Assembly: GCA_042408215.1 (NCBI GenBank)
Contig: JAYFMW010000026.1
Span: 32,001-96,000, forward strand
Direction of reading: 5' to 3'
DNA: 64,000 nt
Source of the DNA: Microcoleus sp.
Lineage (GTDB): Bacteria > Cyanobacteriota > Cyanobacteriia > Cyanobacteriales > Microcoleaceae
Positions 43,132 to 63,200 of this stretch are shown here, in pieces; positions within the stretch are counted from its first letter, which is position 1; every line of letters begins with the position of its first letter. The translations under genes were made by a program, and so were the position numbers. The notes under the pieces are model-generated. The model was not told the origin of the DNA, did no database searches, and saw only the letters and a list, made by a program, of their open reading frames with translations.

Positions 43132-46100
43132 ATGATTGATTTTCGCAACACAAACACCCTCTGGTCTTCAATATTAGCCGAAACTTTACAGCGTCTGGGA
43201 TTAACTACCGCCGTCATTTCTCCCGGTTCGCGATCGGCACCATTAACAATAGCCTTTGCCCAGAACCACAAAATAGAAACTATTCCGGTTTTAGACGAAC
43301 GTTCAGCCAGCTTTTTTGCATTAGGAATTGCCAAAAAAACCCATTTACCCGTCGCACTAATTTGCACATCTGGAACCGCCGCAGCCAACTTTTATCCTGC
43401 GATCATAGAAGCCAGAGAAAGTCGAATTCCGCTGCTAATATTCACAGCCGATCGACCTCCCGAACTGCGGGATTGCCATGCTGGACAGGCTATCGACCAA
43501 GTAAAAATCTACGGCAACTATCCCAACTGGCAAGCCGAATTAGCCATCCCTTCTGCGTCCATAGGAATGTTAGGCTATTTGCGGCAGACGATCGTGTATG
43601 CTTGGGAGCGATCGCAATTTCCAACACCCGGCCCCGTTCACCTCAACATCCCCTTTCGCGACCCACTTATACCCGTTCCAGACATTGCTGTAGAAGCTTT
43701 AGAAACACAATTTGATATCGAAGATTTCTTTGCAGGATTAGAACCGATTGTTGCAGGAGAAACCTCTACCCCCCCCAGCCCCCCCTTAGCAAGGGGGGGA
43801 GCAGGAAGTCCAATAGAACCAAGCCCCCCCTTGTTAAGGGGGGGAGAAGAAAGTACAATGCAACAATGGCAGAAGTGCAGCAGAGGGATAATTATTGCGG
43901 GCGTTGCACAGCCTCAATTTCCCGAAAAATACTGTAGTGCGATCGCCCAAATCTCCAAATCATTAAACTGGCCAGTTTTAGCAGAAGGACTATCCCCAGT
44001 CAGAAACTACGCCCAACTCAACCCCCATCTAATTTCCACCTACGATTTAATCCTGCGAAACCACGAACTAGCAGATAAACTAACCCCAGAAATCGCCATT
44101 CAAATTGGAGACTTACCCACAAGCAAAGAACTACGAAACTGGTTAGACAAAACCCAACCCAGACGATATATAATCGACCCCAGCCACCACAACTTCGATC
44201 CCCTACAGGGCAAAACAACCCACCTGCGAACCTCCGTAGAGCATCTAGCCACTGCTATTTCCCCTCAAGTCCCCCCCCTGATTAAGGGGGGGTTAGGGGG
44301 GGTTCAAGATCGGGGCAACCACGGGGGGATTGCCCCTACAGACAATCAAACAGAAAACCAGAATTTTGTAGGGGTAGTGCCCCCGTGCCTACCCCTCACC
44401 ACCAATGAGGGCAACCACGGGGGGATTGCCCCTACAGACAATCAAACAGAAAACCAGAATTTTGTAGGGGTAGTGCCCCCGTGCCTACCCCTCACCACCA
44501 ATGAGGGCAACCACGGGGGGATTGCCCCTACAGACAATCAAACAGAAAACCAGAATTTTGTAGGGGTAGTGCCCCCGTGCCTACCCCTCACCACCAATGA
44601 GGGCAACCACGGGGGGATTGCCCCTACAGACAATCAAACAGAAAACCAGAATTTTGTAGGGGTAGTGCCCCCGTGCCTACCCCTCCCCACCAATGAGGGC
44701 AACCACGGGGGGATTGCCCCTACAGACAATCAAACAGAAAACCAGAATTTTGTAGGGGTAGTGCCCCCGTGCCTACCCCTCCCCACCAATGAGGGCAACC
44801 ACGGGGGGATTGCCCCTACAGACAATCAAACAGAAAACCAGAATTTTGTAGGGGTAGTGCCCCCGTGCCTACCCCTCACCACCAATGAGGGCAACCACGG
44901 GGGGATTGCCCCTACAGACAATCAAACAGAAAACCAGAATTTTGTAGGGGTAGTGCCCCCGTGCCTACCCCTCCCCACCAATCAGGGCAACCACGGGGGG
45001 ATTGCCCCTACAGACAATCAAACAGAAAACCAGAATTTTGTAGGGGTAGTGCCCCCGTGCCTACCCCTCCCCACCAATGAGGGCAACCACGGGGGGATTG
45101 CCCCTACAGACAATCAAACAGAAAACCAGAATTTTGTAGGGGTAGTGCCCCCGTGCCTACCCCTCACCACCAATGAGGGCAACCACGGGGGGATTGCCCC
45201 TACAGACAATCAAACAGAAAACCAGAATTTTGTAGGGGTAGTGCCCCCGTGCCTACCCCTCCCCACCAATGAGGGCAACCACGGGGGGATTGCCCCTACA
45301 GACAATCAAACAGAAAACCAGAATTTTGTAGGGGTAGTGCCCCCGTGCCTACCCCTCACCACCAATGAGGGCAACCACGGGGGGATTGCCCCTACAGACA
45401 ATCAAACAGAAAACCAGAATTTTGTAGGGGTAGTGCCCCCGTGCCTACCCCTCCCCACCAATCAGGGCAACCACGGGGGGATTGCCCCTACAGACAATCA
45501 AACAGAAAACCAGAATTTTGTAGGGGTAGTGCCCCCGTGCCTACCCCTCACCTCTCCATCAAAGGAATACCTCCAACTTTGGCACAACACCGAAACCCAA
45601 ATCAGACAAACAATAGACCAAAAAATATCAGCAATTCAAAACATAATTGAACCCAAAGTTTCCTGGCTGCTGTCCCAGATTTTGCCACCAGGAACACCAA
45701 TATTTATTGCTAACAGTATGCCAGTCAGAGATGTAGAGTTTTTCTGGAAGCCGAATCACTTAGAAATAAAACCTTTTTTCAATCGCGGCGCTAACGGCAT
45801 AGACGGCACATTATCAACAGCTATGGGAATAGCTCACCGCAATCAAAGCAGCATCATGTTAACAGGGGATTTAGCACTTTTGCACGACACGAACGGTTTT
45901 TTAATTAAACATAAATTTGTCGGTCATCTGACAATTATTTTAATTAATAACAACGGCGGTGGCATCTTTGAAATGTTGCCCGTTGCCAAATTTGACCCGC
46001 CATTTGAAGAGTTTTTTGCCACGCCGCAGCAGATCAACTTTGCTCAGTTGTGTGCAACTTATGGCGTGGAACACGAGATAATTGACGATTGGGAGCAGTT

Positions 46101-46221
46101 AAAAGAAAAATTAAGTTTTTTGCCAAATAGCGGGATTCGTGTCTTAGAATTGCCAACAAATAGGCGTACAGATGCTAAATGGCGGCAAGATCATCTAGGT
46201 AAATTTGCCAAAGATTTGTAA
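43132..46221 (+). CDS. menD: SEPHCHC synthase carrying a ~416-aa in-frame tandem repeat insertion
   Basis: SPGSRSAPL, DERSASFFALG, TSGTAAAN, NRGANGIDG, GDLALLHD and NNNGGGIF motifs. Confidence 0.93.
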   Translation: MIDFRNTNTLWSSILAETLQRLGLTTAVISPGSRSAPLTIAFAQNHKIETIPVLDERSASFFALGIAKKTHLPVALICTSGTAAANFYPAIIEARESRIPLLIFTADRPPELRDCHAGQAIDQVKIYGNYPNWQAELAIPSASIGMLGYLRQTIVYAWERSQFPTPGPVHLNIPFRDPLIPVPDIAVEALETQFDIEDFFAGLEPIVAGETSTPPSPPLARGGAGSPIEPSPPLLRGGEESTMQQWQKCSRGIIIAGVAQPQFPEKYCSAIAQISKSLNWPVLAEGLSPVRNYAQLNPHLISTYDLILRNHELADKLTPEIAIQIGDLPTSKELRNWLDKTQPRRYIIDPSHHNFDPLQGKTTHLRTSVEHLATAISPQVPPLIKGGLGGVQDRGNHGGIAPTDNQTENQNFVGVVPPCLPLTTNEGNHGGIAPTDNQTENQNFVGVVPPCLPLTTNEGNHGGIAPTDNQTENQNFVGVVPPCLPLTTNEGNHGGIAPTDNQTENQNFVGVVPPCLPLPTNEGNHGGIAPTDNQTENQNFVGVVPPCLPLPTNEGNHGGIAPTDNQTENQNFVGVVPPCLPLTTNEGNHGGIAPTDNQTENQNFVGVVPPCLPLPTNQGNHGGIAPTDNQTENQNFVGVVPPCLPLPTNEGNHGGIAPTDNQTENQNFVGVVPPCLPLTTNEGNHGGIAPTDNQTENQNFVGVVPPCLPLPTNEGNHGGIAPTDNQTENQNFVGVVPPCLPLTTNEGNHGGIAPTDNQTENQNFVGVVPPCLPLPTNQGNHGGIAPTDNQTENQNFVGVVPPCLPLTSPSKEYLQLWHNTETQIRQTIDQKISAIQNIIEPKVSWLLSQILPPGTPIFIANSMPVRDVEFFWKPNHLEIKPFFNRGANGIDGTLSTAMGIAHRNQSSIMLTGDLALLHDTNGFLIKHKFVGHLTIILINNNGGGIFEMLPVAKFDPPFEEFFATPQQINFAQLCATYGVEHEIIDDWEQLKEKLSFLPNSGIRVLELPTNRRTDAKWRQDHLGKFAKDL
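44313..45552. repeat. 13 tandem copies of a 96-bp unit made of two inverted GTAG-type REP-like palindromes
   Basis: GACAATCAAAC recurs every 96 nt from 44341 to 45493. Confidence 0.95.
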
Positions 46222-47297: not shown

Positions 47298-48164
47298 TTA
47301 ATCTCGGATTTCCAGGTTGTACTGGCGGCAGAGGGCGATCAGTTTTTGTTGGAAGCGATCGCGCACACTGTCTGGAGAGACGATCGCGCAATCTTCCCAA
47401 TAGGGGGCAATTTCGCGGAAAAACCAGAAGGTATTGAAAATCGGACGGGTGACTCGTCTAATTGGCGGATCGCCTTCTAAGTCGCTGACTTCCACATCGC
47501 CTTGCTTTCGTCTGTAGTTAAAGGCAAGCCTGCCGAATAAGTGAAATTCTACGGAAATTCGCTCTAGATCCGGCAACCAAGTTCGATCGACCGACATCAC
47601 CGCAGCATCTTCAATGCGATCGAGCAGCAGGGTCCAGTTGTGTTCGAGTCCCGGTACGTCTTGATTTCCGTCAGATTCTTCGCAGCGACACATTAAATAC
47701 TGTCGCTTTTCAATAGGGACAATCCGAGCGTGTAAGACTGTGTAACTCCAAAGGCGATCGGCTGCATCTCGATAGGAAAGGCGAAATGGTTGCTGTCTGT
47801 GGATAAAATTATCGATTTTTTGCCGCCAAGCAGGTAAAGGGTTGCTCAAAAACGCCTCGATTTGGGCCCGGAAGGGGAGAGTTAGTTCGCTGCGCGAGCT
47901 CAACAATTGGGCAATTGCCAGCGCTTCATCAATTTTGCCCGAGTCGAGCAATTGCTGTCGGGCGATGTCTAGGGCTTGGATGCGGGTTTGGGGCCAGTCG
48001 TGGTTGGGGGCGATCGTCAGTTGGCGGCGGGCGATCGCTTCTATCAGTTTGGAAATGTTCGGGCGATCGCCCCACGTCTTCCCGAATTCTTGGGCCAAGG
48101 CTTCCAACTGCGCTTTATCTCGTTCAGAAACAGACAGGGTGATCGATTGACCTTTGCGACTCAT
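47298..48164 (-). CDS. CRISPR-associated WYL-domain transcriptional regulator with N-terminal RHH-like domain
   Basis: MSRKGQSITLS..W.DRPNISKL; FRLSY.DA, RQYL, LDRI and FWFFRE motifs; divergent from type I-D cas3. Confidence 0.88.
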   Translation of the reverse strand: MSRKGQSITLSVSERDKAQLEALAQEFGKTWGDRPNISKLIEAIARRQLTIAPNHDWPQTRIQALDIARQQLLDSGKIDEALAIAQLLSSRSELTLPFRAQIEAFLSNPLPAWRQKIDNFIHRQQPFRLSYRDAADRLWSYTVLHARIVPIEKRQYLMCRCEESDGNQDVPGLEHNWTLLLDRIEDAAVMSVDRTWLPDLERISVEFHLFGRLAFNYRRKQGDVEVSDLEGDPPIRRVTRPIFNTFWFFREIAPYWEDCAIVSPDSVRDRFQQKLIALCRQYNLEIRD

Positions 48165-48261
48165 AAATGTACGGACACTTCTTCATTGTACGGGCTTGAT
48201 AATCTCAATTATCGGTGTCAATATGAGGAATATCCACTTTCTACGGACACAGATTCAGCAT

Positions 48262-50442
48262 ATGTCCGATTACCAGATTACCCTCAAATCCGTTTACTCC
48301 TGTCCCGCTGCGGAAATTCCCAAAGGAGTGAAATTACCGGAAAATTGGACGCTTTCTTGGCATCAACTTGAAACTTTAAAGGCAATTCGCGATCCGAATA
48401 TTGATGTCATTTTCAACTCAGCTATTACTAGCGACGGCAAAAGTTTAGCCGCTTTCCTAGAAACATTGCAGACATATTGTTGTGCAGTGGCGCTATATCC
48501 TACTAATGAACTGGCGCGAGATCAGGAGACTCAAATTAAGCGCTATATCGAACAATTCCAGCCCGAACATCAACCCCGCGTTGTGCGACTCAGCGGCTCG
48601 GAATTAGAAATCTATGCAGAAAATGAAAAGCTGAGAAAAGCAGCCGCGATCGCATCTCGCACAGGTCAATCAGAGATTTTATTAACTAACCCTGATATCT
48701 TGCACTATCTCCACCGAGGAGCGTATTTAAGCTCTGAAGATAGCCCCGATAAACTGTGGGGTCGCATCGACAAAGATTTTGACCTGTTCATTTTTGATGA
48801 ATTTCATGTTTTTGCTGCTCCTCAGATTGCCAGCGTCATCAATACCCTGTTATTAATTAGTCATACAAACCGCCGAAAAAAGTTTGTATTTCTGTCAGCA
48901 ACTCCAGACGAGCAATTAATTAGCAGACTAGAAACAGCAGGGTTTCGCTGTCAAACTATCGACCCTTTAAAAGCAGGAAAATATCGGTTTCCCGATCGCC
49001 CTGCGGAAATCGAACAGTTGAAATCAGACTCCTGGCGGCAGATATTGAGGGAAAGTACGCTGACTTTTATTTCCCTAGAACCAACTTCAAAAGCTTCTGA
49101 AACTTGGCTGAAAGACAGCGCAAATCACATCCTGACTCACTTTAAACACAATCCGGGAAGTAAAGGAGCTATTATCCTGAATTCAATTGCTGCCGTCAAG
49201 CGGCTGACACCATTTTTTCGGAAATTGTTCGCGCCTCACGGTTTAGTTGTTGGCGAAAATACTGGGTTGTCGGGAAAAACGGAAAAAGAGCGATCGCTCT
49301 CGTCAGACTTAGTTCTCGGTACTAGCACCATTGATGTCGGGGTAGACTTCAAAATCAATTTGCTGATTTTTGAATCCGCCGATGCGGGTAACTTCATTCA
49401 AAGATTGGGAAGGTTGGGGCGACACGATGGGTGCGATCGCAATGGGGAGTTTATTCAGTTTCAAAATTTCACAGCCATCGCACTCACCCCTAATTTCTTA
49501 GTCGAACGCTTATTTGCAGGCGATACTGCGACTTTAGAGTCTAATGGAATTTACGATCGTCCTTTTTTCTATCAACAAATTCGCGAAAAGTACCGCCAAA
49601 TCAACAATTTTGAGGGATATTATTCGCGGTGGGGTGCGGTGCAGTCAGTTCAAATTTGTTGGGAATTAGGGCACAGGACAATTAAACAGCAGTACGCATC
49701 AAGTCAGAAAGCTTTTCAGGAAGCTGCTCAAAAAGTATTTAAAACTAGCTTGGGGAAAGTGGCCGGTAATATTAAACAGTGGGGCAAAGAGTGGAAAGAG
49801 CGATCGGGAAATAAAACAGGAAATCCGATCGTTGAAGATGCTAGCAGTTTTCGAGGTTCTAGTCCCCTGCAATGCGGCATCTGCGATTTAACCGATTCCC
49901 ATGAGGCAGACAAATTTAAAACTTACGATTTACCAGGAATTTTGAGCAACTTGGAAATCGAACCGATGACGGAATCTGCATTTATGCAAATGTTGAAGGA
50001 GACATCTGAACGCCTTGGGCAACCAATTGCCAAAGGTCGATTTAAACACTGTCTGGCTTTTTTGAAGTTGCGTAGTTATCGGGAGGAAAGACTGAATTGG
50101 AAATTTACTTATTCGGGAAATTTAGAGGAAAACGCTGCTGTTTGGAAAGTTCAGGTGTTGACGGGGATTGAGGTTGTGCAACCTGAGAATTATTGGATCG
50201 GGGAAATCAACAAGCGTTTGAAGAAGCAAGCATTGGTTTGTTATGTGCTGCGTTATCCGGTGGCTGAAGTGCGATCGCGCCTGCGACTGCCGGTGCACTT
50301 TCAGATTTATCCGATTTGCGATCGGTACAGTATCCACGATGGGACTGCACCTTATTCGATCGCCTTTGGGCAGTCGGCGCTGCTTGTGGACACGCTGGCC
50401 CACTGGCTCAAGAGTAAGGGGGATGAAGTATGGATTGCGTAG
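48262..50442 (+). CDS. cas3: Type I-D Cas3' helicase without HD domain
   Basis: DGKSL, LYPTNELARDQ, DEFH, LSATP, TSTIDVGVDF and QRLGRLGRH motifs. Confidence 0.93.
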   Translation: MSDYQITLKSVYSCPAAEIPKGVKLPENWTLSWHQLETLKAIRDPNIDVIFNSAITSDGKSLAAFLETLQTYCCAVALYPTNELARDQETQIKRYIEQFQPEHQPRVVRLSGSELEIYAENEKLRKAAAIASRTGQSEILLTNPDILHYLHRGAYLSSEDSPDKLWGRIDKDFDLFIFDEFHVFAAPQIASVINTLLLISHTNRRKKFVFLSATPDEQLISRLETAGFRCQTIDPLKAGKYRFPDRPAEIEQLKSDSWRQILRESTLTFISLEPTSKASETWLKDSANHILTHFKHNPGSKGAIILNSIAAVKRLTPFFRKLFAPHGLVVGENTGLSGKTEKERSLSSDLVLGTSTIDVGVDFKINLLIFESADAGNFIQRLGRLGRHDGCDRNGEFIQFQNFTAIALTPNFLVERLFAGDTATLESNGIYDRPFFYQQIREKYRQINNFEGYYSRWGAVQSVQICWELGHRTIKQQYASSQKAFQEAAQKVFKTSLGKVAGNIKQWGKEWKERSGNKTGNPIVEDASSFRGSSPLQCGICDLTDSHEADKFKTYDLPGILSNLEIEPMTESAFMQMLKETSERLGQPIAKGRFKHCLAFLKLRSYREERLNWKFTYSGNLEENAAVWKVQVLTGIEVVQPENYWIGEINKRLKKQALVCYVLRYPVAEVRSRLRLPVHFQIYPICDRYSIHDGTAPYSIAFGQSALLVDTLAHWLKSKGDEVWIA

Positions 50443-50443
50443 A

Positions 50444-50589
50444 ATATCAAGCCCTAATAGGGTTTGGGTTAAGTCAGGTAGGAAGGTAGAGGAACGAACG
50501 CCATTAGGAGCGCAGCTAATGTTTTCAATCCCTAATAGGGGGTTAAGCTATCAATAAAAATTAATAAGCTTTTCTACCTGTCCACACCC
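50444..50589 (-). ncRNA. Degenerate repeat-spacer-repeat mini-array (crRNA-like regulatory RNA)
   Basis: 50522-50540 matches the reverse-complemented array repeat at 17/19 and 50444-50465 at 18/22; both keep the CCCT-ATT-AGGG hairpin; spacer about 50481-50521. Confidence 0.8.
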
Positions 50590-50595
50590 TACATC

Positions 50596-50636
50596 AGTAT
50601 ACCAAGGATGACAACTATGTTTAGATCGTTTATACT
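50596..50636. promoter_or_regulatory. Back-to-back promoters: minus-strand extended -10 TGGTATACT (50604-50596) and plus-strand ATGACA-N17-TATACT (50608-50636)
   Basis: Sigma70-like consensus matches read directly; not experimentally mapped. Confidence 0.6.
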
Positions 50637-50664
50637 CAGACAATGGAAAGCTTCGCGGCTCTGT

Positions 50665-50697
50665 GAGCAACGATCGCGAGTAGGAACACAGATATGT
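50665..50697. promoter_or_regulatory. Predicted target site of the mini-array guide
   Basis: 23/30 identity between 50489-50518 and 50665-50694, with mismatches at guide positions 6, 10, 12, 18, 20, 24, 30. Confidence 0.75.
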
Positions 50698-50844
50698 AAT
50701 CGCAGCCCTTCTTGTTCTTTAGACAGAACGGTTTTTAGCGTCACTTTATTTGAGTGGGGGTATAACGCCCCCCTTCTGCTCCTGTCAGCAGTCAGCAGCC
50801 GTGAGTCTTTCCAGTCTGTAAAAACTCAAAAGGAGACATTCACA

Positions 50845-51096
50845 ATGCCAAAGCCAAAACGCTCTGGTGAGGGAGGGCCTTTGCTATTTATTCCCTATTC
50901 CCGGAAACCTTTTTTGGAAAACAAAAAGAAAGTTCGAGGGAGAAATCGCCACCCCTTTGAGTTGCTGGAAAAAGTTCAGAACTTATTAGAAACTGCACTG
51001 GACAGAAATGAGTTTGAGTCAGAGGAGGTCAAAGCAGAAGTCTATGACTTTTTAGTAATCCTCCGAGGCTCTAAAAAGGTATCTCAAAGGCGCTAG
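50845..51096 (+). CDS. Orphan 83-aa basic protein, candidate CRISPR-regulated toxin or regulator
   Basis: AAGGAG RBS, ATG at 50845, downstream terminator; no family recognised. Confidence 0.6.
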   Translation: MPKPKRSGEGGPLLFIPYSRKPFLENKKKVRGRNRHPFELLEKVQNLLETALDRNEFESEEVKAEVYDFLVILRGSKKVSQRR

Positions 51097-51128
51097 ATAG
51101 TAGCACCTTACGAATTTTCATTAGTTAG

Positions 51129-51175
51129 GCTCTACAGGAGTAGTGTAACTACATAAGAGCCTGTAGAGCTCTTTT
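51129..51175 (+). terminator. Putative intrinsic terminator after the 83-aa ORF
   Basis: GCTCTACAGG (51129-51138) / CCTGTAGAGC (51160-51169) followed by TCTTTT. Confidence 0.55.
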
Positions 51176-51220
51176 GTCAAAAATCTCTATCAAAGATAAG
51201 TGAGTTCTTTCATAGACTCC

Positions 51221-51363
51221 CAGGGCTGTTTCATTCTCTTGTAGGGGCGGTGCCCCCGTGCCCGCCCTAGCTCTCAAACACATACAAAATGTCGATGAAG
51301 AGGGTCGGCACGGGGGCACGACCCCTACAAAATTATCGTTTTCTTGAGAATGAAATAGCCCTG
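51221..51363. mobile_element. MITE, 143 bp, 18-bp TIRs, 10-bp TSD CATAGACTCC
   Basis: CAGGGCTGTTTCATTCTC / GAGAATGAAATAGCCCTG (17/18); TSD at 51211-51220 and 51364-51373. Confidence 0.92.
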
Positions 51364-51386
51364 CATAGACTCCCTAGAGGCATAAA

Positions 51387-54300
51387 ATGGCTAAAAAACG
51401 TCAAAAACCAGATGAAGAGTATCAACAACTCTCATTATTTGATATCCCAGTTAATTTGAACTCTGAGCGATCGGATGATCCAGATGATGACTGGTTGCAA
51501 GATGAAGAATTAGGGTCAAACTTTCAAACGTCCGATCGCACAATCGAACCTCAAACTCGCGACTTACTAACCCTCAAACTCTTGCGATCAGCCATTCAGA
51601 GTCAAAATCCAGGCGATCGCGTCATGGCAGACTTCGCAGAATATGTCTTGCCAAATCTGCTGCGAGTTGCCATTGGCGTCACAGCCAAAGGCGGCAAATT
51701 TTTTGACGAACTCGATCGCAAACAAGGAAAAGAGAACGTCAGGCGCGATAACGCAGGCGATCAGTCCCTAAATACTCACCTGCTAAATGGATTATTTCCC
51801 GCTAATTTAATTGAACAGCGGTTAGAAAAACTCGATACCACCGTGCGGCGATCCGTAGGAGAAAAAGAACGGCGGTTAGTAATTGCTGGATTTATTCTCC
51901 ACGACTTTGAAAAATTCCCCGATGTCCCCAACGATTGCCGCAAGTTACCACTAGAAAAGCACCGTCAAATTATTGATGAAAAAGTGCGACAGTTAGGACT
52001 AGATAGCTTGATCAATCCCGACGATCCAGATGCTTATCGAGAATACATTGACGATTTGCTCTGCCTTGCTTACAACGCTCAGCGGCGTTGGGATACTAAC
52101 TGGAATTTTTCCGAATTTGGGTTAAATCCAGTGTTGCGCGATCGCACACTCCGCAGTCTTTCAGACTTAACCTGTTTAGCAGATTCCCTAGCATCTATTA
52201 TCAAACATCCCCAAGATGCAGAAAATACCAGACTAAACGAGTTAATCCACAGCCTCAGCGACGGACAATTAAAATTCACTTATCACAGCATCGCTGAAAA
52301 CAGAGGCGTACTTACTAACGTCGTCAATAACGCTTTAATGGAAGTGCATACGGCGCTGAATACCGACGCTTGCACCTACTATGAACCACTGCTTTACCTA
52401 CCAACAGGTGTAATTTACCTAGCACGGCGGGATGCTCCTGCTATTTCAATTGCAGACTTGCCCGAACGGGTAGTTAGCAAGATTAAACAACTCTGCGCCG
52501 GACAATTGCAACGGCGACAAACTGGATTTGGTAGAGATGGTAAAGGCATGAAATATGCCGAGTATTATAACCTGTTTTTTGATCCGTCAGAGTTGATGCT
52601 AGTTGCTGTTGATGCTACTTTACGCATTCTCAAAATAGGAAAAAACTCTGTTGCCAAAAGTCGCAGCGATAATCTGATCAAATTTCAGCGTCAGGATGTT
52701 TTATCTGCCGATTATAAATTCAATTTTGAGGACGATATTCGGATTGACCAAATTGCTGAACTTGGGGACTTAGTGAGTCGCAAGATTTGGGGAGAACAGG
52801 TTAATACCATCGAAACTGCACGCAAGAAAGACAAAAAACTACCCGCCCTAACTCATCTAGATATTGTCGATGAAATTGCTAAGTTTTGGAACCTGTCCGA
52901 CTATCTACCAGCCCTAAGAGAAATTCAACGGATTAATGAAAGCCTCAAAGAACTTAAACTAAAAGGCAATACAGGCGGCGTTCCTTACGAATGGTACTAT
53001 TTAGCAGCAAAGTACCTAGAACATCACCCAGGAATTGAGGATGTGCGGGAAGTTTGCGAACAGGCGATCGCCCACATTTCCCAAATGATTAAACCCATTC
53101 TTTCACAGTACAAATTGCCCGACGGTTGGGACGATTTGCGGTTGTGGGTAACGCGGGTTGTTATGTTACCCGGAAATACACCATTGGACACAGCATCCGC
53201 TGACGTATTTTTAGATGAATTGGAACGCTACCAACTCGCCAAAAAACAGGGTAGAGGAAGACAGTTAATCTGTTCGATTTCCCATTCAGCTTACACGGTG
53301 ACAGAACAAATGGAATCAGCCGTTTTGTTCACCCCTCAAGTTTACACTAACAAACAAATGTTGGGAGGTTCTAACGCCAAACGGAATATTTCTAGTATTG
53401 CAGGTTTGGAAATGATGCTGAGGCAAATTTTAATGAATCAAACTCAAGCTGTGGGCAAAAAATTTGAAGATGGCAAATATCGCTATCTCTATTTTTATCC
53501 CACATATTACTTCACCCCAGAAACAAATAAGTTTCTGCAAAAAGCCTACACTAGCATTGCCCAAACCCGCTTTGATACCAGCATACGCAATCATTTTATC
53601 AGCAAAGATTTGCAAGCCGATTTTGGGCGCGATCGCTACCAAAGCATCGATGCTTTCCTCATAGATGAAAACATCGAACCAGGAAAAGACCGCACCTTCA
53701 AACTTTCCTATCCCGAAGACCAACCTCTAACATTTTACTTCATGGCGCTTCCCCCCGGTAGAGATGCAACAGATACCGAATCTTGGGTAATGCCAGCTTG
53801 GCTAGCTTTTGCTTTCCCGATGATTCTGGATGTCAAAACCGTAGTTTCAGAGTCGCCAATTCCGCCTTTTAACGACGGTGCAGAATTTGAAGAAACCGTA
53901 TTTCTTGACAGTGTACCCCAAGCTTTTAGGGTATTGACCAAGCGCGATCGCTTTCGTCTCGACTATATTTTAGAAGGATGGGAGGAAAACGGCAAATCTT
54001 ATCCAGCACCTTTGAATGTGTTAACCGCTGCTTATGCGATTCACCTTGATGTTAATGCAAAACAAGGGAAGTCCGGTTATGACTCCAACTGGGGAAAATT
54101 AACTGAACTCGCCACTGATTTTGAAACCAGCCCGCTTTATGTGTTTAGCTACCTAAATAAGTGGGTGCGGAAACAGAAAAATGAAACGGCATCAATTCAA
54201 AAGATTAAGCTTTATGCTTATCATTTTTACCCTTGCTTTGACTCCTATGCCCAACTATAATTTCATGATCAGAGGAACGGATCGACTGAGACAACCGCAT

Positions 54301-54791
54301 CAAGCCTAAACCACCCTGCCAAAAATTGACAGGAATTGTATCGCAGGTTCTATACCGCTGACAAGTAAGCGATACAATCCCAAGGCAAATGCTGTGCTGA
54401 AACCGATTGATATTGCCTCTAAAACCATCCTGGAAGCCGATCGCAGTTTTCAAGGTGAGCATCTTCCTACGTGTTGGGCTCCGTTGCGTGCTGAAGCCTG
54501 TTCGGGGAAAAGCTCGATGGATCGCGTTCACTGCTTCTACTGCTGAAGGGCGCTGGGATTTGGCTCAGCAAGCGGGAGGAAGAACGAGAGGCAATTTTAG
54601 AGTTTGCTCGCTACTTTGTTGAGGAGGTGTTTGAGCAATCATTTGCGGGCGATCGCGCTCGTTTAGCAGGTCGCCAAATCAACTTAATCCGAGATACCTG
54701 CGAATTTCTTTACCGTTTAGAGAATGACAAAGACAATCGTGATAGAGATGACAAATCTCCTGACGATTTACAAGAAGAAGCTGACAATTAA
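51387..54791 (+). CDS. cas10d: Cas10d/Csc3 large subunit; C-terminal (Cas11d-like) part frameshifted from about 54250
   Basis: DQSLNTHLLNG and LHDFEK HD motifs; homology continues out of frame to EAILEFARYF..LIRDTCEFLYRLE with stop at 54791. Confidence 0.9.
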
Positions 54792-54860
54792 AGCTGAATT
54801 TTTTGTTCGATCGGCTACAGGCTAACTACAAAACTAACATTTTTACATAGGACACAAATC

Positions 54861-56886: not shown

Positions 56887-57770
56887 ATGCCACACAGCCT
56901 AGTCCTAAACCTCCTCCCCCAGGCCCCAATTCCCCCCGGATACCTCACCGGAAGACACCTGCACGCCCTATTCCTCACCCTCGTGAGCACCGCAGACAAA
57001 AAACTCGGCGACTACCTCCACGAAGCCACCGCCCAAAAATCCTTCACCCTCAGCCCTTTACAAACCAAAAAATGCCCTTTCAAAAAACATCATTCCCTCC
57101 AATGGGAACACACAGAACCAATTCCAGAACATACCCTCTGCTGGTGGCGAATTACTCTCCTTGATGACAGTTTATTCAGCAAATTAACTCACCTTTGGCT
57201 CAATCTTAATCCCGCTCATCCCTGGCACCTGGGCCCGGCGGATTTGCTGATTACGAATATCTTCGGCACTGCTCAATTAAATCAACCTTGGGCTAATGCT
57301 TGTACTTACTCTCAATTGTACGAACAAGCTTCGGAAACTAACCGCTTAATTGCTTTTAGTTTTGCGACTCCTACTACTTTTAGGCAGGGGAAATTCGATT
57401 CGGTGATTCCTACTAGAGAATGCGTTTTTAACAGTCTTCTCAGTCGCTGGAATAAGTACAGCCCGCATCGCAGATTCCCGATCTTTCCTTCGATGCACTG
57501 TTTTCGACATTTGTCAATATAAAAAGCGAAAAAGTGACTAACTATGAAATCAATTTTGTGGGGATGGTTGGGGAGGTTAGTTATCGGATCTTGGGTGATG
57601 TGGAACCTTTGGCGATTAAGCAAATTAATGCTTTGGCTGATTTTGCTCTTTACTGCGGGGTTGGGAGGAAAACTCCGATGGGGATGGGAATGACACGGCG
57701 AATTGCGATCGCACCTTCTCAAAAAATTACCAAGCAAAATGCAGAATTATCGTTCCCGATTCAAGGGTAA
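56887..57770 (+). CDS. cas6: Cas6 endoribonuclease, frameshifted near 57460-57535
   Basis: MPHSLVLNL..GRHLHALF, FATPTTFRQ; the C-terminal G-rich loop YCGVGRKTPMGMG is in a separate ORF. Confidence 0.88.
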
Positions 57771-58753: not shown

Positions 58754-59761
58754 ATGGGAACAGTTTACATTACTCAAGAAGATGCTTTTATCGGCAAGAA
58801 TGACGAACGTCTTACCGTTAAAGCAGACAAAAAAAATTTGTTGGATGTGCCGTTAATTAAAATTGATGGTGTTGTTGCTTTGGGACGCGCCACAGTTTCT
58901 CCGGCTGTGGTTGTGGAACTTTTGGAACGTCACATTCCTTTAAGCTTTCTGACTGAAACGGACGTTATTTAGGCAGGCTGGAACCGGAAATGACGTAAAA
59001 ATATTTTTGTGCGAAAAGCTCAGTGGCAAGCAGCAGGCGAATCTGAAAAGTCAGTACATTTAGTCAGGGGTTTTGTACGAGGTAAACTCAAAAATTACCG
59101 CAATACTTTGTTGGAATGTCAGCGCAAATATTCTCCACAAGATTTTGAAAAATCGATCGCCCAATTGAAACAAGTCATCGCGTCAATAGACAAAACTGCG
59201 AGTATTAATTCCCTGCGAGGATTAGAGGGGGCGGGTAGTGCGACTTATTTTGGCTGCTTCAATCGGCTGATTCGCGTGCCTGAATTTAGCTTTGAAGTTC
59301 GCCGTCGTCGTCCGCCGACCGATCCGGTAAATTCTCTGTTAAGTTTGGGATATTCTCTGTTGCGGCACGATGTTCAAAGTGCGGTGAATATTGTGGGGTT
59401 CGATCCGTATTTGGGATATCTTGCATTTCGAGCGCTATGGCCGTCCTTCCTTAGCACTGGATTTGATGGAAGAATTTCGACCGTTGGTAGTTGATGCTGT
59501 AGTGTTAACAGCGATCAATTTGCAGAAAGTTGCTCCTAATGATTTTACGGCAGAACCGTTGAGCGGTGCGGTTTCTTTGACAAAAGAAGCGCTGCACAAT
59601 TTTTTACGACTTTACGAGCAAAAGAAACAGTCAAAATTTAAGCATCCAGTGATGGGAAAGTCGTGTGCACTTATCAAGAAGCTTTTGAAATTCAAGGGCG
59701 GCTGATGGCTAAGTATTTGATGGGTGAAATTGACAAGTATCCACCTTTAGTTTTGTACTAG
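58754..59761 (+). CDS. cas1: Cas1, split by several frameshifts
   Basis: Three consecutive fragments: MGTVYITQ.., LRGLEGAG..RRPPTDPVNSLLSLGY, SLALDLMEEFRP; ends KYPPLVLY stop. Confidence 0.88.
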
Positions 59762-59763
59762 AT

Positions 59764-60039
59764 ATGCACATTCTGATTTCTTACGATGTCCCGGAGGATA
59801 AGCGCCGGACAAAGATTCACAAAATGCTCAAATCCTATGGGCAGTGGATGCAGTACAGTGTGTTTGAGTGTGCTGATTTGACTGAGACTCAGTACGCTAA
59901 GTTGCGATCGCGCCTGAACAAAGTCATCAAACCGAACGAAGACAGCATTTTGTTTTTTCGGCTGTGCGCGTGCTGTCAGGGTAAAATTGAACGTATTGGT
60001 GGGGTAGTGCCTGCCGATCGGACAATATTTTTTGCCTAG
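59764..60039 (+). CDS. cas2: Cas2
   Basis: ISYDV..DKRRTK..YGQWMQYSVFEC..LCACC. Confidence 0.95.
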   Translation: MHILISYDVPEDKRRTKIHKMLKSYGQWMQYSVFECADLTETQYAKLRSRLNKVIKPNEDSILFFRLCACCQGKIERIGGVVPADRTIFFA

Positions 60040-60290: not shown

Positions 60291-63200
60291 GCCGCAAAAT
60301 ACCTAAAACCCTATCAGGGATTGAAACCCTGGCAAATTCAACTCTTCCATTACTCGATCGCGTGCCGCAAAATACCTAAAACCCTATCAGGGATTGAAAC
60401 GCCGGTGGGGATATTCATGCGATTATTTCTGCCGCCGCAAAATACCTAAAACCCTATCAGGGATTGAAACGATAATTTTTTTTCAGCAAGCCACTGAACA
60501 TCGCGCCGCAAAATACCTAAAACCCTATCAGGGATTGAAACTCCATAATCGATCGAGCTAAAGCCGACTGCGATCGGGGCCGCAAAATACCTAAAACCCT
60601 ATCAGGGATTGAAACGGGCAGATTGATTTTGAGCTGCGATCGCAAGCTGTGGGCTAGGCCGCAAAATACCTAAAACCCTATCAGGGATTGAAACGATCAA
60701 GCATCTCCCGAGCTTCAACGTATAATCTGTGAGCCGCAAAATACCTAAAACCCTATCAGGGATTGAAACACAGTGCTCTATGACGAGTAACGCAATGGCC
60801 GCCAGCCGCAAAATACCTAAAACCCTATCAGGGATTGAAACGCTGAATGAATCATCGCTCAGTAAAAAATTACCATGCCGCAAAATACCTAAAACCCTAT
60901 CAGGGATTGAAACTTAGCGGCTAATGCTACTGATACCGTAGCATTAGCGCCGCAAAATACCTAAAACCCTATCAGGGATTGAAACCCCGCAATTGGGCTA
61001 AGCGGCTGTTCGTCGCTTCTTTCGCCGCAAAATACCTAAAACCCTATCAGGGATTGAAACCAGAATCACCGTTCTCAGAACGTGCAGCTAGCTTGGCCGC
61101 AAAATACCTAAAACCCTATCAGGGATTGAAACAGCCATTTTGCCGACATCGGCAAAATGGGCACCCCAGCCGCAAAATACCTAAAACCCTATCAGGGATT
61201 GAAACGAAAATGGCTGCTACGATGCCTCTATTTCTAAATGCCGCAAAATACCTAAAACCCTATCAGGGATTGAAACTTATTTTGAGATAATCCTGGCTAT
61301 AGATGACGGGCCGCAAAATACCTAAAACCCTATCAGGGATTGAAACAGAGGAAGTGTGTTCGCCCACGGGCGAAAAAACCTATGCCGCAAAATACCTAAA
61401 ACCCTATCAGGGATTGAAACTTCGCGGTGTTTTTAGCTTAATCTGCAAAGCGCTAAAGCGCCGCAAAATACCTAAAACCCTATCAGGGATTGAAACAATC
61501 TCGGATTAGCCCTAGCACCGCCTAATACGAGCCGCAAAATACCTAAAACCCTATCAGGGATTGAAACTTAACCGACTTGACCCCCTTGTCGATCGCAGAT
61601 GCGCCGCAAAATACCTAAAACCCTATCAGGGATTGAAACGAACTAACTACAGCTTGTTGGACGCTAGGAAGAAGTGCACCGCCGCAAAATACCTAAAACC
61701 CTATCAGGGATTGAAACAATCAGAACAGGAGCTAATATCTGTGCCGTTGAGCCGCAAAATACCTAAAACCCTATCAGGGATTGAAACAACACTAACTTAC
61801 GGGGAGCAATCCCTCTTTTCTTTCGCCGCAAAATACCTAAAACCCTATCAGGGATTGAAACGGAAGCAATATTAACAATACCCCGTCCGCTCTTTTGCCG
61901 CAAAATACCTAAAACCCTATCAGGGATTGAAACATTATAGTTACTTATATAAATCAAATTTGTAGCAAATTGCCGCAAAATACCTAAAACCCTATCAGGG
62001 ATTGAAACAGAACCGGGGAGGATTAGGACTAAACAATGGGGTGCCGCAAAATACCTAAAACCCTATCAGGGATTGAAACTCCATCAAGATTACCTATCGC
62101 GCCCCGGTACAACCCCACGCCGCAAAATACCTAAAACCCTATCAGGGATTGAAACCTCGTGGCTAGCGATCGCCTCCCGTACTTTCTCCCATGCCGCAAA
62201 ATACCTAAAACCCTATCAGGGATTGAAACCGTTGCTTGGACTTTTTCTGGCGTTACTTTGGATTCAGCCGCAAAATACCTAAAACCCTATCAGGGATTGA
62301 AACGTAGGAGTCTTGGTGACTCGCTATATGCTCTTCTAGCCGCAAAATACCTAAAACCCTATCAGGGATTGAAACACAAAATTGGCTCCGAGAAAACGAA
62401 AGCTTGATGGCCGCAAAATACCTAAAACCCTATCAGGGATTGAAACGATTGACATTTAGCCGATGTTCGGCAGACCTGCGCCGCAAAATACCTAAAACCC
62501 TATCAGGGATTGAAACGAACTTGCGCTTGAATTTGTGACGTTTTTTGCTGAACAGCGCCGCAAAATACCTAAAACCCTATCAGGGATTGAAACCTATTTC
62601 CTTGTGATACCGTTGCAGCCACAAAGGGCCGCAAAATACCTAAAACCCTATCAGGGATTGAAACTCAATACAGGAATCTTCATCAGGGAATTGAATAGCC
62701 GCAAAATACCTAAAACCCTATCAGGGATTGAAACGGATGCCCCCGCAGCGGAACAACAATTTGTCAAAGTTTGCGCCGCAAAATACCTAAAACCCTATCA
62801 GGGATTGAAACCTGTGTCTGGTTTTCTGAGCGCCGCCAGATTGTAACTGCCGCAAAATACCTAAAACCCTATCAGGGATTGAAACTGATAATCTTAAAAG
62901 CACTTCGCCAGCGCCATATAGCCGCAAAATACCTAAAACCCTATCAGGGATTGAAACTGGGTAGATGAGATAGATGATTGCAATAGGTGGGCCGCAAAAT
63001 ACCTAAAACCCTATCAGGGATTGAAACGGGCCACAGGCTATTGTATATTTTGTCCTCTTTGGGCCGCAAAATACCTAAAACCCTATCAGGGATTGAAACA
63101 TCTATTAATTTCACTCCAATTAATGACGATTTTTGCGCCGCAAAATACCTAAAACCCTATCAGGGATTGAAACTATTGCCAGCAAACCATTTTGCCTGCT

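Follow-up and report, generated by a model that had tools for sequence, protein, structure and literature searches.

A small gene in a cyanobacterial type I-D CRISPR locus and its putative control by a mini-array RNA

The question raised by this locus is why a short gene of no recognised family should lie in the interval from cas3' to cas10d in a CRISPR-Cas system of type I-D, and what controls it. The stretch analysed (hereafter the window) comprised 64,000 nt of Microcoleus sp. (assembly GCA_042408215.1, contig JAYFMW010000026.1, positions 32,001 to 96,000), and the gene encodes a protein of 83 amino acids (hereafter the small gene and small protein; Table 1). The initial annotation had presented it as an orphan, the putative regulated effector, and perhaps a toxin, an abortive-infection factor or an accessory regulator. 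The evidence presented here favours, by a modest degree, a real small gene forming its own transcription unit, with a CRISPR RNA (crRNA)-like RNA held by Cascade at its leader and with a product that would be a non-lethal accessory or adaptor protein. A more specific reading is offered tentatively. This holds that I-D Cascade loaded with mini-array RNA binds the leader of the small-gene mRNA without a protospacer-adjacent motif (PAM), without a seed and with 6-nt periodicity; if so, the ability of a type I effector to bind single-stranded RNA (ssRNA) would for the first time have a natural RNA target and a physiological use. Some lineages would, on the same reading, split the spacer between positions 1-14, directed at promoter DNA, and positions 7-33, directed at the RNA leader.

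The mini-array consisted of two unequal repeats. The proximal repeat showed 4 mismatches in 21 nt and retained the hairpin and the 8-nt handle, with ATTGAAA kept, and the distal repeat was degenerate. Two features of a mini-array cassette were seen in the window: two repeat-like sequences around a spacer in the cas3-cas10d interval, with a proximal repeat that is nearer to the array repeat, and non-cas cargo between the mini-array and cas10d. Equivalent mini-arrays were found in 14/14 loci, in 3/3 metagenome loci where upstream DNA was available, and in L060-L062 (other loci being given L numbers throughout). The leader of the small gene contained a sequence, element E, with a 27-nt match to the mini-array spacer (50691-50665, corresponding to spacer positions 7-33). 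The plus strand of element E is the sense strand of the small gene, and is complementary to the crRNA-like RNA. Local alignment of spacer and leader scored 30-45, compared with shuffle means of 16-20 (standard deviation 2-3), in 10/10 loci tested. When 30 spacer positions were scored across the 7.36-Mb genome (14.7 million positions), multiples of six being excluded, element E was the best non-self match with 23/30, followed by five sites with 21. It lies 176 nt from the spacer, and 128-153 nt 5' of the start codon in 13 loci (140 nt in L060). Spacers differed among the Microcoleus, L009/L010, L025/L027, L060 and Nostocales lineages, and in each case element E followed its own spacer.

The mismatches between spacer and element E were not distributed evenly. 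In class 1 effectors, every sixth nucleotide of the crRNA on the Cas7 backbone is flipped out and left unpaired, and the register of these positions (6n) was set beforehand by the 8-nt handle rather than fitted. Among nine lineage representatives, 23/36 positions at 6n were mismatched, compared with 8/45, 7/45, 5/45, 5/36 and 0/36 in the other registers, and the six mismatches of the Microcoleus type took in every one of its four 6n positions (12, 18, 24, 30; hypergeometric P = 0.0009); the lineages are related, so these statistics overstate independence, and different 6n positions were affected in different lineages. Because the mismatches fall in the Cas7 register, the pattern argues that contact occurs inside Cascade, and not through a protein operator or a decaying duplicate. 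Unpairing at every sixth nucleotide is also how mini-array targets are drawn in PMC10120712.

Interference by I-D systems requires a GTN PAM (PMC10212523, PMC9123187). The three bases preceding spacer position 1 at element E were ATT, ACT, TTT, TTA, TTG, CGT or AGT, and never GTN in register. Spacer positions 1-6 matched element E poorly; pairing would run from 7 to 33. A combined PAM and seed search with the window spacer across the 64-kb window identified no convincing site near the small gene; a match at 51119 (9/12 positions) lacked a PAM and was dropped.

The initial annotation had described a separate transcription unit with a structured leader of about 200 nt, and both were substantiated. 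The unit has a promoter-like site, a terminator hairpin with a T-run and RNA-library contigs that span leader and open reading frame (ORF), and the leader, at roughly 200 nt, had a minimum free energy of -79.5 kcal/mol (z = -3.72), with 0/200 shuffles as good. Among Microcoleus-type loci the leader was nearly invariant, and more so than the coding sequence. A tested structure of 26 pairs in four helices had 85.4% of alignment cells paired, compared with 44-52% when slid, and 0/500 shuffles performed as well; helices 1 and 2 together contained 16 pairs, of which 10 had changes on both sides. This covariation test used seven sequences, leaving out L011-L013 as too divergent, and L001 and L003-L008 as near-identical Microcoleus. 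When all lineages were folded together, Nostocales included, RNAalifold returned a weak consensus (-5.3 kcal/mol). The dominant feature was a long-range closing helix that encloses element E, and which had not been listed at the outset. Both of the hairpins that had been listed exist; compensatory change was evident in the second (3/5 pairs) and not in the first (65.7% of cells paired). An Rfam scan of 50300-51500 returned nothing for the leader, and two sub-threshold matches to microRNA models fell on the hairpin of an inserted element described below.

Contigs covering the gene were present in RNA libraries from three studies (50594-51103, 510 nt without differences; 50588-51106; 50658-51115; 50687-50996); these give neither strand nor true ends, and their depths were not used to rank genes. 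They provide a weak hint of a discrete RNA comprising leader and ORF. Neither the terminator hairpin (51124-51211) nor the mini-array (50420-50551) was covered by any RNA contig, which is uninformative, since filters, or RNAs that are small or structured, can account for it.

The small gene was present between cas3' and cas10d in 13/13 loci from a species-level genome collection, which included a Coleofasciculaceae metagenome-assembled genome (MAG), Richelia sinica and a Dolichospermum MAG. In metagenome loci, cas10d was downstream in 4/4, and cas3' with the mini-array was upstream in all three where that DNA was available. The expectation that homologs would always neighbour cas genes and a mini-array held in every locus examined (the window, 13 genome loci, four metagenome loci and one further genome), for the mini-array wherever the upstream DNA was available, all being in I-D context. 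Of 401 cyanobacterial genomes sampled evenly, 108 had cas10d and four the small gene, each copy of which shared a contig with cas10d and lay 0.5-1.5 kb upstream of it. Searches with tblastn against 50,697 phage and 72,556 plasmid records gave no match. Relatives of the protein were rare, and cyanobacterial wherever named. On this sampling, the small gene is restricted to one subclade among I-D loci, and is dispensable for I-D function in general because so few cas10d-bearing genomes possess it; the initial annotation had rightly placed it outside the canonical I-D gene set. It was the only constant cargo among the loci. In Nostocales-type loci, MNT-HepT pairs (L011, L012) or a lone HepT were found 3' of the small gene, and in L010 a YhcG nuclease lay between it and cas10d. 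With a covarying spacer match in its leader and strict linkage, 'mini-array-regulated' appears to be a fair description of the gene.

The proposed unit would comprise a promoter, the structured leader, 83 codons and an intrinsic terminator, placed between the divergent mini-array and cas10d. A crRNA-like RNA in the I-D Cas7 backbone would bind element E, and would thereby tie expression of the small gene to the amount of free Cascade; expression of this family, confined as it is to such loci, would then report Cascade availability. Binding to the transcript seems more likely than an R-loop on double-stranded DNA, because element E has neither a GTN PAM nor a seed match, and because the leader behaves as RNA, given its folding energy and its covarying closing helix. 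Element E displays what might be expected of a natural RNA target, namely complementarity in the Cas7 register, on the transcribed strand, with no PAM. Exposed single-stranded DNA or naked antisense pairing are possible as the contact instead. Purified Synechocystis I-D Cascade binds matching ssRNA (~11 nM) regardless of flanking sequence (PMC9123187), and the physiological role of single-strand binding by I-D is listed as open in PMC10212523. The locus offers a concrete natural substrate on which that role could be tested.

Relatives in Nostocales possess, in addition, a PAM-flanked promoter site for which spacer positions 1-14 are used. In L011, L012 and L013, protospacers flanked by GTT matched 13, 12 and 12 of these positions respectively, with 4/5 mismatches at positions 6 or 12; they lie 85-100 nt from the mini-array and end at the TATACT box of the small-gene promoter, which is conserved in Nostocales loci. 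A promoter target of this kind, with a PAM and at least 10 nt anchored at the 5' end of the spacer, was seen in these three loci; the window and L001-L010 had no GTN-flanked seed match between mini-array and small gene. A 110-aa ORF precedes the small gene in the Nostocales-type loci (L012 5389-5721, L013 5329-5661, L011 5381-5695) and lies just downstream of the GTT-flanked target; it is frameshifted in L011, its matches to HTH_11 and HTH_5 were weak and below cut-off, and it belongs to no curated family.

A further GTT/GTC-flanked site was observed inside the divergent 288-aa ORF (47881-47900, plus strand), and at the same place in L001-L005, L007 and L008, although these loci are ~90% identical and not independent. 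It matched 11-12/14 first positions of the Microcoleus-type spacer, and 9/12 for the mutated spacer of the window. The site is ~270 nt upstream of cas3' and overlaps the palindrome GCGATCGC. It may reflect chance, or may represent a second target, at the DNA level, for control of cas3' or of the regulator gene. The promoter-like sites of the mini-array and the small gene (50596-50636) interlock face to face, each -35 box lying between the -35 and -10 boxes of the other, and their occupancy may be mutually exclusive.

Regulation of genes by CRISPR effectors through mini-arrays is a recent theme, and the targets proposed so far are PAM-flanked promoter DNA. One parallel is CreTA, a CRISPR-repressed toxin-antitoxin RNA pair of haloarchaeal type I-B systems, whose known toxins (CreT) are small RNAs; the promoter that is targeted has a PAM and is matched over ~11 nt, and loss of Cascade is lethal. 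As in CreTA, a degenerate mini-array RNA would here use Cascade to control the adjoining gene. The present locus differs in having a conserved protein product rather than a small RNA toxin, in its long PAM-less match, and in the loss of Cascade without loss of the gene. Feedback of Cascade occupancy on the expression of a cas-locus gene would be shared with CreR-type autoregulation; however, the direct target would lie in the leader of a separate, terminator-ended small gene, and not in the cas8 or cas10d promoter. CreTA is named, and cas-promoter targeting described, in PMC10120712. That paper (Shmakov et al. 2023) describes two I-D clades with mini-arrays and cargo between cas3 and cas10d, and the mini-array's placement, the logic of its orientation and the cargo before cas10d are the same here, as is the PAM-flanked Nostocales promoter target that matches only the 5' part of the spacer. 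The architecture itself is therefore of a published kind. As excerpted, however, PMC10120712 names toxin-antitoxin pairs and regulators as cargo and not this protein family, and describes promoter DNA targets only, whereas the clade of the window has a PAM-less, seed-less 27-nt match within a structured leader. No paper naming the small protein was found in a literature search whose coverage stopped short of Figure 6 and Supplementary file 6 of PMC10120712, which may show these loci. PAM-independent recognition of a single strand by the Cas7d backbone was likewise described in vitro by Schwartz et al. (2022, PMC9123187), using a fully matching artificial target; no natural RNA target is known. 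What is new here is the protein family, the structured leader and the PAM-less target in Cascade register inside a transcribed leader.

Several points weigh against Cascade-held RNA acting at the leader, and are gathered here. The crRNA-like RNA, its processing and its binding to the leader are all predicted from comparison. Naked antisense pairing is also energetically plausible (duplex energies of -19 to -41 kcal/mol, compared with -12 to -19 for shuffles). The 5' ends of the RNA contigs (50588-50594) lie ~50 nt upstream of the start predicted from the promoter, which is unexplained. Positions 1 and 5 of the window spacer carry private changes and Cascade here is dead (see below), such that the circuit is probably idle in this genome; the two changes are consistent with a circuit fallen idle in this strain. 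The small protein has no recognisable fold relative, and so its role is a guess. Finally, the terminator may be leaky, in which case the leader would regulate the cas10d operon instead of the small gene.

On an alternative reading, the Cascade operon simply begins with the small gene as its first cistron; the element would mediate CreR-like autorepression of cas10d-csc2-csc1-cas6 through read-through, and the protein would be a Cascade subunit or assembly factor. Gene order is indeed constant, the gap between terminator and cas10d start codon in loci without an insertion is ~50-60 nt and contains no good promoter, and published I-D mini-arrays have been proposed to target the cas10d promoter (PMC10120712). 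Nevertheless, a strong terminator is conserved after the small gene, the MNT-HepT and YhcG cargo separates it from cas10d in L010-L013, and only 4 of the 108 cas10d-bearing genomes sampled have the small gene at all, so that this explanation appears improbable. In the window genome, the interval between terminator and cas10d contains an insertion resembling a miniature inverted-repeat transposable element (MITE), which was unique to this genome and absent from L001-L009. Its GC-rich core matched many RNA contigs with unrelated flanks, and a -35-like TTGAGA at its right end stands 16 nt before TAGACT, so that the two may form a hybrid promoter for cas10d.

The alternative that the locus is a CreTA-like addiction or abortive-infection module, in which Cascade and mini-array RNA silence a toxin and any loss or inhibition of Cascade stops growth, was evaluated through the condition of the cas genes. 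In the window, cas10d encodes 957 aa, compared with 1112-1151 aa in 13/13 other loci; the family match continues through seven in-frame stops in what is the only copy in the genome, and the region encoding the embedded small subunit is thereby lost. In addition, a frameshift interrupts cas6 near residue 195, and cas1 contains both stops and a frameshift (decayed intervals include 56887-57770 and 58754-59770). Judged by these lesions, Cascade cannot be functional in this genome. The small gene has nonetheless stayed intact, as have its promoter boxes and leader, and its product shares 100% identity with the proteins of L001 and L002, where cas10d is full-length. A toxin restrained only by Cascade should be lost or inactivated first, and the survival of the small gene beyond Cascade therefore weakens the toxin reading. 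Contigs covering the gene also appear in the RNA libraries of three studies, no toxin or defence model in Pfam, PHROGs, NCBIfam or PADLOC matched the protein, and the Microcoleus loci lack a cognate antitoxin gene. On the other side, the architecture is that of mini-array-regulated cargo, toxin-antitoxin genes are enriched at the same I-D position (PMC10120712), and in L011 and L012 the small gene is followed by MNT-HepT pairs; evolution of the C-terminal half is rapid, with divergent alleles, and 13/18 family rows have a motif resembling that by which SocB binds the sliding clamp (PMC9690074). On balance a CreTA-like toxin is the less likely reading, and an unlikely one; the product is probably not a killing toxin, and the suggestion of a toxin or abortive-infection factor in the initial annotation gained no positive evidence. 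An intact gene beside a dead Cascade may still be compatible with some mild effect on growth, or with control at a second layer. Such a genome provides evidence from nature that mini-array cargo is not in every case an addiction toxin. The I-D system of this genome is in decay; long arrays of its repeat remain on three contigs, and 207 matches to the repeat were counted across the genome.

A quite doubtful alternative treats the similarity of spacer and leader as an operator pair for one DNA-binding protein, or as a decaying repeat-spacer duplicate. The flank of element E resembles, if anything, the repeat handle, and in the window and L011 a weak similarity continues into the handle, as duplication would predict; the small protein is basic and could itself bind, and the candidate 288-aa regulator gene is nearby. 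However, neither operators nor decay would predict mismatches in a 6n register set by the crRNA handle, and element E is the most conserved part of the locus, hence not decaying, and is inside an RNA domain supported by covariation.

The coding status of the small gene was supported by several lines of evidence. The translation was identical to the 83 residues first reported, and the GGAG core preceding the start codon was kept in 8/9 aligned leaders. A longer in-frame ORF from 50608 (162 aa) was rejected as the true start for lack of conservation, the open frame in L009 and L010 beginning at the methionine of MPK; a mini-ORF at the predicted transcript start (MESFAAL) was dropped, since neither L009 nor L010 conserves it. 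When 5.8 billion proteins were searched by word index, 10/12 candidates passed as relatives (67-89% identity), those named being Microcoleus hypothetical proteins. A profile search of 1.84 billion cluster representatives gave 14 matches at E <= 0.001, 11 of them proteins of 35-112 aa; the other three were long proteins aligned in 5-9 stretches, and were taken as coiled-coil noise. The ratio of nonsynonymous to synonymous substitution (dN/dS, Nei-Gojobori) was 0.48-0.69 overall, compared with ~0.17 for cas3', and 0.23-0.31 for the N-terminal half in the two deepest pairs. Given the Shine-Dalgarno site, a dN/dS below one, a confident helical model and the RNA-library contigs, the ORF is, by these comparisons, a real protein-coding gene. 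That it should instead be untranslated, within a non-coding RNA, is very improbable: nucleotide conservation in the leader and over the first 105 nt of the ORF exceeds what coding requires (dS of 0.04-0.07, compared with 0.18 in cas3'), but the frame is kept, with in-frame indels, across lineages 24-89% identical, dN/dS is below one, the Shine-Dalgarno site is conserved and helices are predicted confidently.

The assertion that the protein belongs to no recognised family was upheld, there being no match to any Pfam, PHROGs, NCBIfam or PADLOC profile or PDB sequence. An AlphaFold2 model from 15 sequences had a mean predicted local distance difference test score (pLDDT) of 73, and above 90 over residues 41-70, with a short strand (19-22) and a helix (23-29), after which two long helices (32-53 and 60-74) form a hairpin. 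Foldseek identified no fold match in the PDB at E <= 0.001, and BFVD gave none at the same threshold; VIA-align across 48,161 chains reached a best Z of 4.7, with generic helical hairpins only. The nearest ESM Atlas clusters, at 0.90-0.91, were unnamed hypothetical proteins. Longer or fused forms were searched for and none were found, which is weak evidence. The best-conserved parts were an N-terminal segment around an invariant L14, and the basic run KKKVRGxNR. More speculatively than its regulation, the protein, whose basic N-terminus bears a conserved linear motif and precedes a helical hairpin, might act as a non-lethal accessory or adaptor when Cascade is limiting.

The N-terminal segment provides one lead to function. 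It reads Q-[LI]-x-hydrophobic-x-hydrophobic in 13/18 family rows, including QLSLPL, QLILF and QLELF, and the loose Q-L-type motif has a base rate of ~0.005 per 20 residues in long ORFs of the window genome. The bacterial clamp-binding motif is QL(S/D)LF, and the toxin SocB binds the beta-clamp (PMC9690074); QLSLPL serves as a strengthened clamp-binding variant (PMC3664792). A short segment of this kind is thus shared with SocB-type binders by most family members, but the window protein reads PLLFIPY here, without the glutamine, and has neither a sequence nor a fold relation to SocB. A complex predicted between the small protein and DnaN of its own genome scored 0.01 (mark 0.32), which is evidence neither way. 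Binding of the family to the beta-clamp (DnaN) through this segment is a slender possibility. A second, divergent dnaN-like gene was observed on contig C30 (87901-89049; open frame of 548 aa), 36% identical to the main DnaN, and similar extra copies are present in other genomes of the order.

The C-terminal half was hypervariable. Between the window and L008, dS was 0.54 and dN 0.33 in this half, compared with a dS of 0.07 in the N-terminal half and 0.18 in cas3'. The two genes (L008 6001-6249) are divergent alleles of 67% identity that differ only in codons 36-83, despite a nearly identical leader and 94-96% identity in cas3' and cas10d. This mosaic suggests an exchange of old alleles or selection for diversity. 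In L007 (5992-6222), a 6-nt deletion affects the start of the small gene and a 1-nt insertion ends the protein six residues early; the shortened gene adjoins a full-length cas10d.

Table 1. Positions of the features discussed, in window coordinates
Feature	Position	Strand	Remarks
288-aa divergent ORF, candidate WYL-type regulator	47298-48164	-	upstream of cas3' in 12/13 genome loci
cas3' helicase	48154-50442	+	Pfam DEAD and Cas3-like_C_2
Two-repeat mini-array	50442-50558	-	repeat-like matches directly after cas3' stop
Mini-array parts	distal repeat ~50442-50478; spacer 50479-50521; proximal repeat 50522-50558	-	spacer position 1 = 50521
Mini-array promoter-like site	50596-50623	-	TAAACA, 16 nt, TATACT, TG-extended; consensus match only
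Small-gene promoter-like site	50608-50636	+	sigma-70-like; ATGACA, 17 nt, TATACT; 10/12
Structured leader domain	50645-50812	+	closed by long-range helix, 50645-50660 with 50797-50812
Element E	50662-50697	+	plus strand complementary to mini-array spacer
Leader hairpin 1	50714-50729	+	first listed as 50715-50729; no covariation
Leader hairpin 2	50756-50773	+	first listed as 50756-50772; compensatory pairs
Shine-Dalgarno AAGGAG	50830-50835	+	9 nt 5' of ATG
Small gene (83 aa)	50845-51096	+	translation equals the 83 residues first reported
Intrinsic terminator	51128-51178	+	11-bp stem (hairpin 51128-51170) and T-run; conserved in 10/10 aligned loci
MITE-like insertion, inverted ends	51222-51363 (142 bp)	.	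11-bp target-site duplication, 51211-51221 and 51364-51374
cas10d pseudogene	51387-54800	+	TIGR03174; ORF ends 54260, then remnants with stops and frameshifts

The remaining I-D genes of the window were identified by family match, and comprise csc2 (PF18320), csc1 (TIGR03159), cas6, cas4, cas1 and cas2, in addition to cas10d (TIGR03174); these are accompanied by a CRISPR array of at least 51 repeats, starting at 60291. The candidate regulator upstream of cas3' had only a weak match to the WCX domain (E = 0.012), which is below cut-off. Elsewhere in the window, a 1029-aa ORF (43132-46221) contains the N, M and C domains of a thiamine-pyrophosphate enzyme, with ~500 residues between M and C. It adjoins a gene resembling isochorismate synthase, and so appears to be MenD-like with a large insertion.

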